64,000 nt of DNA from an uncultured Candidatus Saccharibacteria bacterium (GTDB lineage Bacteria > Patescibacteriota > Dojkabacteria > J137): NCBI GenBank assembly GCA_964607415.1, contig CAZSKK010000002.1, positions 9,991-73,990 on the forward strand. The letters run 5' to 3'. The notes beneath the pieces were generated by a model. The model saw only the letters and a list, made by a program, of their open reading frames with translations, had not been told where the DNA came from and searched no databases. This document shows positions 29,247 to 62,442 of this stretch, in pieces (position 1 is the stretch's first letter; every line of letters begins with the position of its first letter). The position numbers and the translations under genes are program-made.

Positions 29247-29274
29247 ATATAAAAAATGCTTTTACATCTTACTT

Positions 29275-29355
29275 CTCCTGAAAATGCACATTATGCATTC
29301 AAATGCAGTTAATTTAGTTACACTCAACAGCACAACATGCTGTCTCAGGATGAGG
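29275..29355. repeat. copy A of an ~80-nt structured intergenic repeat (two covarying hairpins), between pilT and pilC
   Basis: CTCCTGAAAATGCACATTATGCATT...ACAGCACAACATGCTGTCTCAGGATGAGG; matches 53074-53152 and 62235-62335. Confidence 0.75.
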
Positions 29356-29382
29356 TTTTAAGTTAAATTCTTTTTTTATGTT

Positions 29383-29456
29383 CTCGACAACAGCATAATA
29401 TGCTTTTTCGAGTTGATCCTGAACTTGCTTGCCAGCCTATGCTATGGTTTCAGGAT
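29383..29456. repeat. degenerate relic of the repeat family (second-hairpin copy + ATCCTGAA...TTCAGGAT inverted repeat)
   Basis: CTCGACAACAGCATAATATGCTTT resembles hairpin 2 of copy C; GATCCTGAACTTG shared with 61010-61023. Confidence 0.5.
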
Positions 29457-34348: not shown

Positions 34349-34476
34349 TTCATTTGGAGCTTAAAGTGCCATGTGATTTAGCGATTGAGTGGTAGATGAA
34401 TACTTTCATTTTTCCCAAATTCAGTGTAAAATCATATGCGCTCGAATATAACTATTCACTACAGGATGGATTCTAA

Positions 34477-47280: not shown

Positions 47281-47434
47281 AGTGGGTAGAATTAATAACT
47301 AACTAGACTAGAATTAACTATAGCAGATTAAAGGAAAGAAGAGAATATGAAAAGCAAAAAAAGAGAAAGAGACAGTTTAAGCTTAGGTATATGTTCAAGT
47401 AATAAGCGCTGATGACTTAAACTTGAACTAGTTT

Positions 47435-47517
47435 ATCGGAGGAGGGAGTTGAACCCTCACGAGGTTTGATCCTCACCAGATTTTGAGTCTGACGTGTCTG
47501 CCATTCCACCACTCCGA
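47435..47517 (-). tRNA. tRNA-Leu (anticodon CAA), type II, CCA not encoded
   Basis: Reverse complement GTCGGAGTGGTGGAATGGCAGAC...CAGACTCAAAATCTGG...long variable arm...GGGTTCAACTCCC...; G1-U72 wobble. Confidence 0.8.
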
Positions 47518-47639
47518 CTAAATAATTGTGTTAAATTTTTAAAAAGTTTATGTCTGCTCCCGCTTCGTTAAAACTTCACGGAACTAAGATCTTCTTAAAT
47601 TCGACTTCACTTACGCTTGTCTCGTTTAGAATCTCTTGA

Positions 47640-47657
47640 GCATTCCACCACTCCGAC
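47640..47657 (-). repeat. 18-nt duplicate of the tRNA-Leu 5' end (GTCGGAGTGGTGGAATGC) 122 bp upstream of the tRNA
   Basis: 17/18 identity to tRNA-Leu nt 1-18; downstream sequence does not fold as a tRNA. Confidence 0.6.
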
Positions 47658-47666
47658 ATTTCTTTT

Positions 47667-48995
47667 TTATTTTTCATCGTAGAACTTCTGAAATTCACCA
47701 ACGAATTTTAACACAAGTTTTCCCGTTGGGCCGTTTCTGTGTTTTGCAACAGAAATATCAACCAATTTACTTTTTTGATTTAACACGTCTTCTTCCTGAG
47801 ACATATCGCGACTTAAAAAAATCACCAAGTCTGCGTCTTGCTCGATAGATCCCGATTCTCTAAGATCTGAAAGCTGTGGGATCCTATCCTGCCTGTTCTC
47901 TACTGCTCTATTTAACTGCGACAAGGCAATAATTGGAACATTTAACTCCCTAGCTAAAATCTTTAACGATCTGGATATTTCCCCTACTTCTTGTGCTCTA
48001 CTATCTGCATACTTAGGGTTACCTTGCATTAACTGAAGATAGTCAATTAAAATTAAATCAATTTTTTTATCCATCATCAGTTTTCTAGCCTTACTTCTCA
48101 ATTGCATAATGCTAATACCAGGAGTTTCATCTACAAAAATATTACTGTCAGCAAGCTTTGCCTGTCCTAGGTTAAATCTTTTGTATTCGTCATTATTCAT
48201 CCCACCCATTCTTAGTTTCCACAAACTTATTTCTGTTTGTTGAGCAAGCAGCCTTTCAATAACCTGAATAGCAGGCATTTCTAAAGAAAAAATTACAATA
48301 TTCTTTTTTTCTACAACTGAAATATGTCTTACAATATCAAATCCAAAAGCTGATTTTCCAACGCTAGGACGTGCAGCAATAATTATAAGATCAGATCTAT
48401 GTAACCCACCCAGAAGATTATCAAAGCTCGAAATCCCTGTTGGAAAACCCCTTAATGCATTTGGGTTTTTAGCAAACTCATCAGCTTTTTTCATTTGCAT
48501 TTCAAGAAGAGTTTCAGCATCAAAAAAATCTTTTGCAATAGTTTTTTGAGAAACTAATAACAAGTCTTTTTCCATATCATCAATAACTTGATCGAGTTCA
48601 AGTTCTTCATTCCTAGCACTTTCATCTAGTTTTGCACCAAACGAAATCAAATTTCTTCTAACAGCAGCCTCTTTAACAAGATTTGCATACTCTTCAATGT
48701 TTGCAGAAGTTGGAACCGAATTGATTAGATCAGATATGTAACTATTGCCTCCAGCTTCTTTATGTTTATTACTTTTTTTTAGCTCAGCAGATAACGTTAA
48801 AACATCTAACGCTTTGCTGGAAGAAAAAAGCTTATACAAGTGTTCAAATATTATTTCGTTTCTAGGATCATAAAAATATTTAGGTTCTAATAAATCCGCA
48901 ACTTTATTAAAAGCTTCATCATCTATCAGAACTGACCCTAAAACCGCCCTTTCTGCTTCAATATTTTGTGGAGGAACTCGTAAATTATTATTCAT
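47667..48995 (-). CDS. dnaB: replicative DNA helicase DnaB
   Basis: N-terminal domain EAERAVLGSVL, Walker A ARPSVGKSAF, RecA-like C-terminal domain. Confidence 0.95.
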   Translation of the reverse strand: MNNNLRVPPQNIEAERAVLGSVLIDDEAFNKVADLLEPKYFYDPRNEIIFEHLYKLFSSSKALDVLTLSAELKKSNKHKEAGGNSYISDLINSVPTSANIEEYANLVKEAAVRRNLISFGAKLDESARNEELELDQVIDDMEKDLLLVSQKTIAKDFFDAETLLEMQMKKADEFAKNPNALRGFPTGISSFDNLLGGLHRSDLIIIAARPSVGKSAFGFDIVRHISVVEKKNIVIFSLEMPAIQVIERLLAQQTEISLWKLRMGGMNNDEYKRFNLGQAKLADSNIFVDETPGISIMQLRSKARKLMMDKKIDLILIDYLQLMQGNPKYADSRAQEVGEISRSLKILARELNVPIIALSQLNRAVENRQDRIPQLSDLRESGSIEQDADLVIFLSRDMSQEEDVLNQKSKLVDISVAKHRNGPTGKLVLKFVGEFQKFYDEK

Positions 48996-48996
48996 T

Positions 48997-49524
48997 TTAG
49001 TTCAGAATATGATAAGTTGTTGCGTGATCTTCTAAAGTTTCAAAGTCTGAATCGTCAAATTTAAACTTGGTATCTTCTATTATATTCTGGCTGCCTAATT
49101 CTTTTTTGGATAATTCTATCCAGCTGGAATCACCAGTTAAAATTACTTTAACTGGATCAAAAATTTCTATGTAACGTTTTAGATACTTTTCGCTCACATT
49201 AGAAAGTATCAAAACATACGAATTAGATAAATTCTCTGCCTGTTTTTTCTCAACCTCAACATCCGAAAACATACACACAACTCCTACCGATCCAGATTCT
49301 ACATAACTCAGATCTATTTTTGATTCCATCTGGTCTTTTTTTGATTCTAGAACAAGAATATCTAAAGTTCCAAATTCATATTCGCCCGGTTTTTCAATTA
49401 CACTTTCTCCTCGTTCTGAATTTACAACGAATTTAATTTCTTTTACATTTGAAAAATCAAGAATTGCTTTTGATTTAGGAACTTCAAAGCTCAATTGAGT
49501 CTTACTTGCTTTTTTAATTGTCAT
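48997..49524 (-). CDS. hypothetical protein (175 aa) immediately upstream of dnaB
   Basis: Not L9; no motif recognised. Confidence 0.4.
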   Translation of the reverse strand: MTIKKASKTQLSFEVPKSKAILDFSNVKEIKFVVNSERGESVIEKPGEYEFGTLDILVLESKKDQMESKIDLSYVESGSVGVVCMFSDVEVEKKQAENLSNSYVLILSNVSEKYLKRYIEIFDPVKVILTGDSSWIELSKKELGSQNIIEDTKFKFDDSDFETLEDHATTYHILN

Positions 49525-49777: not shown

Positions 49778-49990
49778 ATAATTACAATGTTAAATAAAGT
49801 TCATTATACTTATCTGGCTTAAAGTCTCTGGCTTTTACTCACGAATCTTAATCAGAAATCTGAACTCTATCATCTGTTCTCTGACTTCTAATCTTCCCAG
49901 TAATTATAATATCTTTTGAAAATTTAACAAATGTTTTTTAACATAATCTGATACCTCTAGCTAGAACTTTTGTTCAGACTTGATTTTTAA

Positions 49991-50005
49991 TTCACGAATC
50001 GTGAA
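49991..50005. promoter_or_regulatory. perfect palindrome TTCACGAATCGTGAA ~20 bp upstream of the rpmE -35 box
   Basis: 7-1-7 dyad; a near-identical TTCATGAATCGTGAA sits at 59832-59846. Confidence 0.4.
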
Positions 50006-50026
50006 TTTATATTCAGAGAATTGTTC

Positions 50027-52800: not shown

Positions 52801-53049
52801 TTACACGTATTGAGTGTATGGAAGCAAAGCTACCTGCCTTGCTCTCTTAATTGAAAGTGCAAGTTTTCTTTGGCATTTTGCAGATACCCCAGTTTTAGTT
52901 ACTGGTCTTATTCTACCCCTTGTTGTAATGTACTTTTTTAATGTTTGCACATCTTTGTAGTCGATTCTTGAAGAATCTCCATCAAAAGGACATTTTATGC
53001 CTAATTGCTTTGCAGTTTTTTCTTTTACTTTCTTTTTTGCAACTGCCAT
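52801..53049 (-). CDS. rpsR: 30S ribosomal protein S18
   Basis: [11 protein letters not shown]...[40 protein letters not shown]; the ORF-track N-terminal extension (to 53100) would overlap the repeat copy B and is rejected. Confidence 0.85.
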
Positions 53050-53073
53050 ATATAAAAAGTTATTCCACATGCC

Positions 53074-53152
53074 TCTCCTAAGAATGCATAATGCATTCAA
53101 ATGCAGTTAATTAGCTACACTCAACAGCACAATGTGCTGTTTCGAGGTGTGG
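53074..53152. repeat. copy B of the structured intergenic repeat, between ssb and rpsR
   Basis: CTCCTAAGAATGCATAATGCATT...ACAGCACAATGTGCTGTTTCGAGGTGTGG. Confidence 0.75.
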
Positions 53153-53168
53153 TTTATAAAATAATTAA

Positions 53169-53651
53169 TTAAAATAATTCTTTACTATCGAATTCTTCAT
53201 CAGACACCTCTTCTGAAGAATAATCTTCAGATGGAGCATTTTCCTCCGAAACTACTGGAGTTTCTGTAGCATCTGGCTCACCTTCAATACTGCCTGCGCC
53301 TTTCTTGTCCTTAGAATTTAACAAAACCATATCGTTAAGCTTAATTTCTGTTCTGTAAATTTTCTTTCCTGTTTCTTCTTCTTCCTTAACTCTTGTTCTT
53401 AACTCTCCCTCAACATAAACCAACATTCCTACTGATAAAACTTGTACACAAATTTCAGCTAATTTATTAAATGCTACAATATTATGAAATTCAGCTTTTT
53501 CTTGAACATTTCCTGAAGCGTCCTTCCACATAGAGTTTGTAGCAATTCCGAAAGTGCAGACTTTAACTCCGTTTCCGGTTTCTTTTAAGCTAGGATCTCT
53601 TGTTAAATTTCCTATCAGCATAACTTTATTTAGTGATCTTGCCTTTGCCAT
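53169..53651 (-). CDS. ssb: single-stranded DNA-binding protein
   Basis: MAKARSLNKVMLIGNLTRDP...OB fold, acidic C-terminal tail ending DEEFDSKELF. Confidence 0.9.
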   Translation of the reverse strand: MAKARSLNKVMLIGNLTRDPSLKETGNGVKVCTFGIATNSMWKDASGNVQEKAEFHNIVAFNKLAEICVQVLSVGMLVYVEGELRTRVKEEEETGKKIYRTEIKLNDMVLLNSKDKKGAGSIEGEPDATETPVVSEENAPSEDYSSEEVSDEEFDSKELF

Positions 53652-53688: not shown

Positions 53689-53979
53689 TTAAAGCTCTTC
53701 TTCTTTCACTAAAAGATATCTCAAAACCTCATCTGTCAAATTCAGAGTTTTTTCGATTTCTTTCGTTTCAGCAGGATTAGCTTCCAAGGTGAATAGAACA
53801 TAGTAACCTTCTTTATATTTTTTTATAGGATATGCAAGAAGTCTTTTACCCATAAGCTCCTTAAGCTCTAATTTAGCTTTATGATCTGCGAGCTTTTTTT
53901 CAAGCTTCTTCATTACCTTCTCTTTGATATCTTCTACCAACAAAGGCTTTAGCACAACCATTAATTCATATTTTTGCAT
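53689..53979 (-). CDS. rpsF: 30S ribosomal protein S6
   Basis: MQKYELMVVLKP... Confidence 0.85.
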   Translation of the reverse strand: MQKYELMVVLKPLLVEDIKEKVMKKLEKKLADHKAKLELKELMGKRLLAYPIKKYKEGYYVLFTLEANPAETKEIEKTLNLTDEVLRYLLVKEEEL

Positions 53980-59792: not shown

Positions 59793-59848
59793 AGATTCAG
59801 GAATTATGATTCAAGATTTAAGAATTCTTAATTCATGAATCGTGAATC
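59793..59848. repeat. cluster of GATTCA/TGAATC palindromic units including TTCATGAATCGTGAA in the rpsB-tsf spacer
   Basis: GATTCAGGAATTATGATTCAAGATTTAAGAATTCTTAATTCATGAATCGTGAATC seen directly. Confidence 0.45.
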
Positions 59849-60844
59849 TTACTTCTTACTACTCTTCTTTGTAGCTTTTCTTTTCTTCTCAGTTTCTTCC
59901 TGAACTCTCTCTAAAATCCCCTTTACTGCTTTGGATTTTGTAGCAGTTTTTTTAGGAGCAGTTGTTTGAACTTTTGGTTCACTTACAAATGCTTTAGCTT
60001 CTGCTTCAACTATTGCTTTAGCTTTTTCTTCTTCTAATGGCTCTTCTACCTTTGCAATTTTAACTTCTGCTTTTGCGTAGTCTTTAAGGTCATGTTTAAT
60101 ACCATTTCCGCCATTACCTGTTAAGACTGAATCTGCCAGGCATCCTACAATTAGTTCAAGAGTTTTTACTGCATCATCATTTGATGGAATTACATAGTCA
60201 GCTTTATCAGGATCGTTATTTGTATCAACAAGAGCAACAACAGGGATTCCTAGTTTTTTAGCTTCTCTGATTGCTCCCTTGTCATATTTAACATCAACAA
60301 CAACTACAGCTGTTGGTTTGCTTGCTAATAATTTTACTCCTGCGTAAAGTCTGTCTAATCTTTGCCATTCTTTCTTCATTCTAGAAATTTCGTACTTCGT
60401 TCTTCCTTCAACACCTTCTGTAAATGCTTGTTCAAGAGCTTTTAATTTATTCAAACTTCTTTTTACTTCTTCGAAGTTTGTAAGTAGTCCTCCTGCCCAT
60501 CTTTTATCAATAAAGAATGACCCCGATTTAATTGCGTTAGTTTTAATAATTTCTTGAGCTTGTTTTTTTGTTCCTACAAATAAAACCGGTCCTCTGCTTG
60601 CAGCTTCTACCAAGAATTCCGATGCTTTTTTAAGTGATTCAATTGTTTGTTCTGCATCAATAATGTGAATTCCGTTTTGAGCTTTGTAAATGAATTTCTT
60701 CATTTTAGGATTCCATCTTTGAGTTTCGTGTCCAAAGTGTGATCCTGCCTCTAGTAGGTCTTTTAGTGTAGGTAATTTAACTTTCTTTGGGGCTTTTTTT
60801 TCTACCGCAGCCTCTGCGTGAGTTGTTGAAGCGTCTGTCGCCAT
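59849..60844 (-). CDS. rpsB: 30S ribosomal protein S2 with extended Lys/Ala/Glu-rich C-terminus
   Basis: LLEAGSHFGHETQRWNPKM...LFVGTKKQAQ... Confidence 0.9.
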   Translation of the reverse strand: MATDASTTHAEAAVEKKAPKKVKLPTLKDLLEAGSHFGHETQRWNPKMKKFIYKAQNGIHIIDAEQTIESLKKASEFLVEAASRGPVLFVGTKKQAQEIIKTNAIKSGSFFIDKRWAGGLLTNFEEVKRSLNKLKALEQAFTEGVEGRTKYEISRMKKEWQRLDRLYAGVKLLASKPTAVVVVDVKYDKGAIREAKKLGIPVVALVDTNNDPDKADYVIPSNDDAVKTLELIVGCLADSVLTGNGGNGIKHDLKDYAKAEVKIAKVEEPLEEEKAKAIVEAEAKAFVSEPKVQTTAPKKTATKSKAVKGILERVQEETEKKRKATKKSSKK

Positions 60845-61859: not shown

Positions 61860-62213
61860 TTAAAGCTCTTCTGCAATCCTATTCAGTACTTTATCAATAT
61901 CCAAGAAAACCTCTTCATTTGTAAATCTGATTATTTTTATATAGAAACTTTCAATATGTACAGTTCTTACTCTGTCGTAATCTGATATTTCAGGTAATAA
62001 ATGGTGTGAACCGTCAATTTCAATACCTAGTCTGCTACCAGGGCAATAAAAATCCAAAATATATTTGCCAATGGAATACTGCCTTAGAAATCTTACGCCA
62101 TACAGCCTACGCTTTCTAAGATTTTTCCACATCAAAGCCTCGTAGTCTGTAGGCGACTTTCTTAGTTCTCTTCTGTAGTATTTTAAATTTTCAGTGTTGT
62201 ATAACTTAGTCAT
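61860..62213 (-). CDS. DUF559 (Vsr-like endonuclease fold) protein
   Basis: MTKLYNTENLKYYRRELRKSPTDYEALMWKNLR...YILDFYCP...IEIDG; start trimmed because the upstream in-frame codons lie across repeat copy C. Confidence 0.6.
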   Translation of the reverse strand: MTKLYNTENLKYYRRELRKSPTDYEALMWKNLRKRRLYGVRFLRQYSIGKYILDFYCPGSRLGIEIDGSHHLLPEISDYDRVRTVHIESFYIKIIRFTNEEVFLDIDKVLNRIAEEL

Positions 62214-62234
62214 AATTGGAATAACCCCACCGGC

Positions 62235-62335
62235 TCTCCGAGCCACCCGAAAATGCACATTGTGCATTTGAGTGCAGCTTACTAGAGGGCCTCATTAGCT
62301 CCACTCGACAGCATAATATGCTGTCTCAGGGGAGG
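62235..62335. repeat. copy C of the structured intergenic repeat (with ~20-nt internal insertion), in the DUF559 upstream region
   Basis: CTCTCCGAGCCACCCGAAAATGCACATTGTGCATT...ACAGCATAATATGCTGTCTCAGGGGAGG. Confidence 0.75.
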
Positions 62336-62442
62336 AATCAAAGGAGGGGTTATTAAGTGTACCGAATAGTATAAAGTTCCGCATTGTACCGCAGCACAAA
62401 TTTCATCTGATATAATTTGTAATTACTCTTTAAAACTACCCT

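Follow-up and report, generated by a model that had tools for sequence, protein, structure and literature searches.

Which element fills the spacer between ssb and rpsR in this Dojkabacteria genome, where does ribosomal protein S18 begin behind it, and does the element serve the operon in which it is located? Here, we examined these questions in the window (the whole stretch of 64,000 nucleotides of DNA analysed) and in contigs of the same species and its relatives. In our best explanation, the element, designated copy B, is probably a member of a lineage-specific, modular and hairpin-rich family of intergenic repeats that has its frame in common with whalefall-1 (RF01762) and that would be selfish or neutral and tolerated in 5' leaders.

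The ssb-rpsR spacer and the start of ribosomal protein S18

The spacer between ssb and rpsR is 119 nt long and is occupied almost completely by copy B (116 nt, 53050-53165), which ends one base before the rpsR ATG at 53049 (Table 1). A sequence-only reading of this DNA had recognized a structured element at 53074-53152; its presence was confirmed, and with the conserved flanks its real extent is longer.

Table 1. Genes of the rpsF-ssb-rpsR locus, parts of copy B and further copies of the repeat in the window
Feature	Position	Strand	Evidence
rpsF (ribosomal protein S6), first gene of the operon	53689..53979	minus	ORF; PF01250 on syntenic genes of related contigs
ssb (single-stranded DNA-binding protein)	53169..53651	minus	ORF; PF00436 on syntenic genes
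rpsR (S18), 82 aa, MAVAKKK start	52801..53049	minus	Orthologue alignment and PF01084 matches
Copy B, full: 5' frame, three-hairpin core, 3' tail	53050..53165	minus	R1 98.3 bits over 53060-53154; R2 frame alignment 53046-53165
P1 5' arm CCACACCUC, pyrimidine tract homologous to ACCUCAYCC of other copies	53144..53152	minus	Minimum-free-energy fold and frame alignment
P2 hairpin AACAGCAC-AUU-GUGCUGUU	53123..53141	minus	Fold; compensatory changes at 2/8 pairs, 7 copies
P3 hairpin GAGUGUAG...CUGCAUUU, containing the spurious TTG 53100	53099..53122	minus	Fold
P4 hairpin GAAUGCA-UUA-UGCAUUC	53082..53098	minus	Fold
3' tail: AGGAGAGG-CAUGUGG, then AAUAACUUUUUAUAU; in-frame ATG 53070 inside; P1 3' arm at 53065-53075	53050..53079	minus	Sequence; near-identical tail of murA copy
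Copy A, directly 5' of pilC (T2SS-F, ATG 29246)	29247..29357	minus	R1 103.7 bits
Partial copy A', close upstream of A: single P2-like hairpin, stem CUCGA/UCGAG	29369..29420	minus	R1 16.4 bits; one-mismatch P2 pattern match
Copy C, 5' of DUF559 endonuclease-like gene (real start ATG 62213)	62214..62354	minus	R1 93.7 bits

The same reading had noted that the listed rpsR ORF starts at 53100 and would be translated across the element, had judged this start implausible and had placed the beginning of S18 at MAVAKKK (53049). The former point is evident from the ORF itself, as the longest S18 ORF comprises 99 aa, starts with TTG 53100, runs through copy B and ends with its stop at 52801. The latter was upheld by the orthologues when the N-termini were compared. 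A protein search assigned the organism to Candidatus Dojkabacteria (CPR). The S18 orthologues retrieved from this group are 79-83 aa long and lack the longer N-terminus, and the best 120 matches cover at most 83% of the 99-aa ORF. In an alignment of 19 Dojkabacteria orthologues, the N-terminal M of the close ones coincided without exception with that of MAVAKKK, and none of the orthologues carried the MWNNFLY- extension that begins at ATG 53070 (89 aa), the S18 start adopted in public gene calls for 19 contigs of the same species.

Both TTG 53100 and ATG 53070 are located within stems of copy B, and the probability of being unpaired in the predicted fold ensemble is 0.06 for TTG 53100, 0.36 for AUG 53070 and 0.79 for AUG 53049. 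The AGGAG tract to which gene callers respond is uninformative because this genome almost never uses Shine-Dalgarno-like sequences. GGAG, GAGG or AGGA was found at -20 to -4 of only 3 of the 58 long ORFs in the whole window, as against a background of 7.6%, and by this count the genome appears to be essentially Shine-Dalgarno-free; its leaders are AU-rich and commonly end in runs like ..ttatatATG, resembling the tail of the repeat. We therefore rejected AGGAG as a Shine-Dalgarno site, the tract being also base-paired and 22-25 nt away from the AUG. The tail AUG as a conserved uORF or alternative start was rejected as well, since its reading frame differs in every copy: in B it is in frame, in A a UAA comes directly after it, and at a copy upstream of murA (see below) it runs out of frame over more than 43 codons. 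Given the orthologues, this non-conserved frame, the scarce use of Shine-Dalgarno sequences and the lower accessibility of AUG 53070, it is unlikely that ATG 53070 is the true S18 start, and the comparisons support ATG 53049 (MAVAKKK) as the authentic one.

Predicted structure of copy B

In mRNA sense, copy B is predicted to fold into a four-way junction in which P1 (CCACACCUC / GAGG..UGUGG) encloses P2, P3 and P4, and these hairpins abut directly with zero junction bases. The fold energy is -35.4 kcal/mol with a z-score of -3.3, and the z-scores of the copies on this strand range from -3.3 to -4.9. Copy C is predicted to fold like B, and copy A to favour an extended hairpin formed by the same arms. 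For copies A-C, folding is more favourable by 4.6-14.5 kcal/mol in sense than in antisense, and their consensus pairs on the gene-sense strand include 13 G-U versus 2 A-C combinations (p=0.007, the copies not being independent); P3 contains three G-U pairs that are possible only on the minus strand. The element is also quasi-palindromic, as the reverse strand scores 48-62 bits to R1 (the covariance model of copies A, B and C), and both P2 and P4 are palindromes of the 6-N5-6 form.

We detected no intrinsic terminator (a GC-rich hairpin with a U-run directly behind it) on the minus strand at 52950-53300 or at copies A and C. No consensus promoter exceeded the shuffled expectation in or beside copies A, B and C, and a promoter-carrying element was rejected for this reason. 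A tRNA-like cloverleaf was rejected too, since the three true tRNAs were the only ones that ARAGORN and the Rfam tRNA models detected in the window.

A dispersed repeat family with a common frame and exchangeable cores

Three copies in the same orientation, with blocks that are 69-84% identical, are present in the window (A, 29277-29358; B, 53075-53155; C, 62246-62339), and apart from these R1 matches only the partial P2 copy A' there. The 9-bp terminal inverted repeats of copy C (AATAACCCC/GGGGTTATT) are perfect, and the ends of A and B are imperfectly inverted and form P1. P2 is the most widespread module of the family. Its pattern, ACAGCA-N5-TGCTGT, occurs four times versus 0.11 times expected by chance, and seven P2 hairpins, solitary or combined, are found in about 71 kb of this species; the solitary ones lie beyond the window edge in tRNA-gene spacers and are co-oriented with the tRNAs.

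Further copies have a different core. In the same species, about 500 nt left of the window start, a copy directly 5' of murA (L033:11745-11834) carries two different hairpins and a tail, AGGAGAGGCATGTGGAATAAACTTAATATAT-ATG (L033:11745-11782), that is almost identical to the tail of B, the stretch AGGAGAGGCATGTGGAATAA being identical in both. In a sister species, two-hairpin copies were found 5' of gyrB (L016:4786-4875) and, in another strain (L017, L018), 5' of pilC. All these copies have one frame, consisting of AAATTTAATTW-ACCTCAYCC (the pyrimidine arm) on the 5' side and of AGGAGARG with a 22-25 nt AU-rich tail, stopping exactly at the downstream ATG, on the 3' side, and the core in between is exchangeable and contains either two or three hairpins. 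A covariance model from the two-hairpin copies (R2) aligns with B on both flanks, passing over the core (26 bits, E about 0.016). Each of the six framed copies (A, B, C, murA, gyrB and the L017/L018 pilC copy) abuts a start codon in sense orientation, and the distance from AGGAGARG to the AUG is 22-25 nt in five of them, C being the one that differs. Pairing is conserved through compensatory changes, which affect 3 of the 16 pairs in three two-hairpin copies and 2 of the 8 pairs in seven P2 hairpins. The neighbouring genes are unrelated to each other: pilC, rpsR and the DUF559 gene in the window, murA and tRNA spacers outside it, and gyrB and pilC in the sister species.

The repeat has consequences for both assembly and annotation. 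Contigs of public assemblies end within copy C (62241-62279) and at solitary P2 hairpins, which is the behaviour to be expected of exact repeats and explains recurrent contig breaks in metagenome assemblies of this lineage. Independent Logan assemblies of several runs end at 62241-62279, L020:7650-7679 and L033:12128-12160, and within copy C two contigs of one sample have 21 nt in common, suggesting that a stretch of about 39 nt is repeated exactly at another site of the genome. With regard to annotation, the longest ORF of the DUF559 gene (61860-62267, minus strand, start at 62267) reads across copy C. Its homologues begin at MTKLYN (ATG 62213) and cover only 83-87% of this ORF, and an NCBI record of this species contains an over-long DUF559 call of 135 aa. 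Because the repeat brings spurious starts and a decoy Shine-Dalgarno-like tract, the DUF559 protein is called 18 residues too long in this species, and S18 is too long by 7 residues in public assemblies and by 17 according to the longest-ORF rule. We also considered the DUF559 gene and the repeat as one mobile unit and rejected it: the next-best homologue is 56% identical, and among the listed homologues the extension occurs only in the window's own protein (P0241).

Gain and loss among related genomes

In contigs of a sister species (S18 96% and PilC 87% identical) the gene order is the same and the ssb-rpsR spacer has 20 or 49 nt and no element. Judged by these spacers, copy B entered its site after the split from the sister species, and the element does not recur at the same position in the orthologous operons as expected of an operon-specific ribosomal protein leader or attenuator. 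Within the species, copy B was unchanged in all seven contigs inspected, each from a different sequencing run.

Presence is variable at other sites as well. The pilB-pilC spacer exists in three alleles, with no element, a two-hairpin copy or a three-hairpin copy; among sister-species contigs, L016 and L037 lack the element and L017 and L018 have the two-hairpin copy, and in a more distant Dojkabacteria contig this spacer has 5 nt. The copy in the gyrB leader is present in the sister species and absent from the window. The pilB-pilC alleles of the sister species differ over the whole spacer rather than by a clean insertion, and no clear target-site duplication was found in comparisons of filled and empty spacers. 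L016/L037 and L017/L018, with identical or near-identical PilC, have wholly different spacers (118 and 113 nt), one of which contains the repeat; this suggests that whole intergenic cassettes may have been exchanged. No parent or donor element was found in about 72 kb of this genome, and the gene tables of the fetched loci show no transposase or recombinase gene adjacent to a copy.

The family was also searched for more widely. A pattern scan of GTDB representative genomes gave one chance match, in an Anaerolineales genome, and a scan of JGI metagenomes gave three chance matches in tandem repeats, none of them matching R1. Two scans of viral contigs detected no family member, and copy B had no BLAST match among phage and plasmid records.

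Observations at other loci

Several other spacers deserve mention in their own right. At 47520-47690 (minus strand), an insert of about 120 nt separates the dnaB stop from tRNA-Leu(CAA) (47434-47518). It starts with a duplicate of the first 17 nt of the tRNA (GTCGGAGTGGTGGAATG), ends with ...GCAGACA and resembles a tRNA 5' fragment split by about 85 nt; the sister-species contig L002 lacks it. In that same contig (L002:11200-11270), just 3' of tRNA-Leu, a perfect P2-like hairpin, CGAAACAGCAT-AAA-ATGCTGTTTCG, precedes a fragment resembling a tRNA T-arm (GGGGTTCGAGTCCCTCC), and a gene caller has put a 64-aa ORF over this region. A second and unrelated palindromic intergenic repeat, TTAATTCAYGAATCGTGAAT, occurs at 49987-50008 and 59829-59849, one site being between rpsB and tsf and the other between the ORF at 48997-49524 and the gene for L31 that precedes prfA. 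The gyrB gene is preceded by a block of about 90 nt (around 34370-34470, plus strand) that is strongly conserved between the window species and the sister species and contains an extended -10-like TGTAAAAT; it is probably the gyrB promoter and leader, and in the sister species the two-hairpin repeat copy is located between this block and the ATG.

Relationship to whalefall-1

The gathering cut-off of the Rfam covariance model for whalefall-1 (RF01762) is 37 bits. The murA copy passes it at full length (L033:11769-11823, 45.7 bits) and the gyrB copy of L016 reaches 34.6 bits. Copy B gave no whalefall-1 match at E<=10 over 52950-53250, and there was none in the whole window; the Rfam search on copy B returned noise-level matches only, and Rfam found no ribosomal protein leader in the window. 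The whalefall-1 layout, with two adjacent hairpins (CYCUCC/GGAGRG and a 9-bp stem) and then a purine-rich tract, is absent from B. What B retains of it is the CCUCUCC tract, a hairpin at the position of hairpin 2 and the complementary outer tract. In B, P3 and P4 take the place of the second arm of hairpin 1, and the outer tracts pair as P1. Homology to a member above the cut-off is seen in the frame and flanks, in the R2 alignment and in the AGGAGAGGCATGTGGAATAA stretch identical to the murA copy. As aligned in this way, B is a three-hairpin variant on the whalefall-1 scaffold.

The description of whalefall-1 is based solely on metagenome reads from whale falls and presents it as a stand-alone sRNA that is not associated with genes; the motif was classed as a non-coding RNA and not as a cis-regulatory one (Weinberg et al., 2010; PMC2864571). 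Its 16 seed sequences favour the Rfam orientation (7 G-U vs 0 A-C, and CUUG loops). The layout of one seed, wf1_Contig538, is nearly identical to that of the Dojkabacteria copies, and the other seeds occur as inverted pairs 35-50 nt apart. There is a conflict of strands here: the model and the seeds favour the antisense strand, as the matches of RF01762 to the sibling copies are confined to the strand antisense to murA and gyrB, whereas the Dojkabacteria evidence favours the gene-sense strand, because the framed copies abut start codons in sense, the solitary hairpins are co-oriented with tRNA genes and the core has its G-U asymmetry. It is likely that for the whalefall-1 relatives in Dojkabacteria the functional strand is opposite to the Rfam one.

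Possible origin and function of the repeat

On the reading that we consider probable, the element would be transcribed within the rpsF-ssb-rpsR mRNA, where the four-way junction formed in mRNA sense would bury TTG 53100 and, in part, ATG 53070 with the AGGAG-like tract, and would leave the authentic AUG 53049 in an unpaired AU-rich stretch typical of the leaders of this genome. The repeat may be tolerated because its AU-rich tail gives the downstream gene an unstructured leader in which the decoy signals are base-paired. It would have no function specific to this operon, would persist as a selfish or neutral repeat, and would spread by transposition or by recombinational exchange of whole spacers, the latter fitting as well, since whole spacers differ between alleles. 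If rpsR were affected, for example by uncoupling from the translation of ssb, by RNase cleavage within a long duplex or by altered mRNA stability, this would be a by-product. On the other hand, placement at start codons at no fewer than five loci, compensated hairpins and the constancy of B in the same-species contigs could equally point to a selected cis-acting function.

In the version of such a function that we weighed, the element would be a genuine cis-regulatory leader spreading between genes, in which a protein or alternative pairing switches AGGAGARG between two pyrimidine partners and thereby tunes downstream translation. The two competing tracts do exist (ACCUCAYCC, and CYUCUCC or the P1 arm), and the sense placement of all six framed copies at a start codon, the nearly constant AGGAGARG-AUG spacing and the compensatory changes are what a leader of this kind would show. 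Yet the set of genes is heterogeneous, presence varies between sister species and even between strains with identical PilC, the organism makes almost no use of Shine-Dalgarno-like sequences, and hairpins abutting without junction bases offer no conserved junction like a ligand pocket. We regard this leader as unlikely. Much the same low probability is given to a broader proposal, in which the whalefall-1-related elements are portable 5'-leader cassettes of a Shine-Dalgarno-less CPR bacterium, placed or exchanged at start codons and setting translation by AGGAGARG switching; if it were true, it would provide the first host, context and function for the orphan whalefall-1 motif.

Still less probable is an operon-specific RNA processing or attenuation site evolved to keep ssb and rpsR expression apart; the sequence-only reading had suggested that the insert could separate the two in such a way. 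A stable structured insert (-35 kcal/mol) is indeed predicted between the two cistrons, copy A may form an extended duplex of about 28 bp of the kind cut by RNase III, and an RNase III gene lies within the window's span on the same-species contig L011. This proposal was not supported by the comparison with other loci: the sister species has the spacer without the element, the same element is found 5' of the unrelated pilC, DUF559, murA and gyrB genes, including a divergent promoter region at copy C, and no terminator-like hairpin with a U-run is present on the minus strand around B. The RNA may nevertheless be processed as a by-product of carrying a long structured insert.

We are equally sceptical of an independent sRNA, i.e. 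the whalefall-1 sRNA as defined in Rfam, made from the opposite strand and divergent from or antisense to the neighbouring leader. The antisense-only RF01762 matches at murA and gyrB, the orientation of the seeds and the class assigned to the motif by Weinberg et al. (2010; PMC2864571) all speak for it. Against it, copy B has no whalefall-1 match and its core would contain 13 A-C mismatches in that orientation, no promoter consensus upstream and no terminator downstream were found on that strand, and the promoter would have to sit within coding sequences that differ from locus to locus.

Least probable is a DNA-level element with incidental RNA structure, whose nested palindromes would be bound or recombined, for example by a REP-type tyrosine transposase or a dimeric regulator. 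The 6-N5-6 palindromes P2 and P4, the quasi-palindromic whole, the terminal inverted repeats of copy C and the inverted whale-fall pairs around a promoter-like spacer speak for it. They are opposed by a G-U strand asymmetry and a strict orientation to transcription not expected of duplex-DNA sites, by compensatory changes with G-U intermediates that fit a folded single strand, and by fetched loci whose gene tables list no transposase or recombinase beside any copy.

Comparison with known systems

The literature searched contained no previous account of structured repeats dispersed in CPR genomes. The REP/BIME elements of enterobacteria and pseudomonads are similar in being short imperfect palindromes, alone or in mosaics, that are extragenic yet transcribed (as would be the case here), are frequently intercistronic within an operon, differ from strain to strain and interrupt assemblies, and the many dispersed P2 hairpins in about 71 kb of this species, single or in mosaics, correspond to this pattern. 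The differences are that the Dojkabacteria repeat has no evident GTAG-type head, that no RAYT was seen in the gene tables of the fetched loci, that REPs are usually 3' of genes whereas these repeats are 5' and end at the ATG, and that there is zero sequence similarity.

The MITE-like BOX elements of Streptococcus pneumoniae and Correia/NEMIS elements of Neisseria are likewise modular (in boxA-B-C style), about 100-150 bp long and inverted at their ends, and are co-transcribed with their neighbours into stable stem-loops, which probably also applies to the Dojkabacteria repeat. RNase III cleaves Correia RNA, and a side effect of this kind has been proposed for the ssb-rpsR insert. In contrast to these elements, no TA target duplication and no promoter or IHF boxes were found in the Dojkabacteria repeat, and it belongs to another phylum and has another sequence. 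Mycobacterial interspersed repetitive units (MIRUs) are also intercistronic in operons, oriented with the genes and in touch with flanking start and stop codons; however, they are tandem direct repeats encoding small coupled ORFs, whereas the Dojkabacteria element is palindromic and the frame of its internal AUG is not conserved.

The rpsF leader bound by the S6:S18 complex is a structured RNA of the same operon, and copy B could in principle control S18 synthesis in a comparable way. That ribosomal protein leader is located 5' of rpsF and is conserved across orthologous operons, whereas copy B occupies the ssb-rpsR spacer, has no counterpart in that spacer of the sister species and belongs to a repeat that is found at unrelated genes as well.

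For whalefall-1 itself, the comparison runs through the murA copy of the same species, which passes the cut-off and with which B shares the pyrimidine arm, the CCUCUCC/AGGAGAGG tract and the tail. B differs in having three hairpins inside a closing stem, forming a four-way junction, in place of two adjacent hairpins, and the elements in this CPR genome are dispersed, strain-variable and abut start codons. Whalefall-1, an orphan motif of Rfam for which whale-fall reads were the only source, is now tied to Candidatus Dojkabacteria, where its relatives behave as a mosaic, strain-variable repeat ending exactly at start codons.
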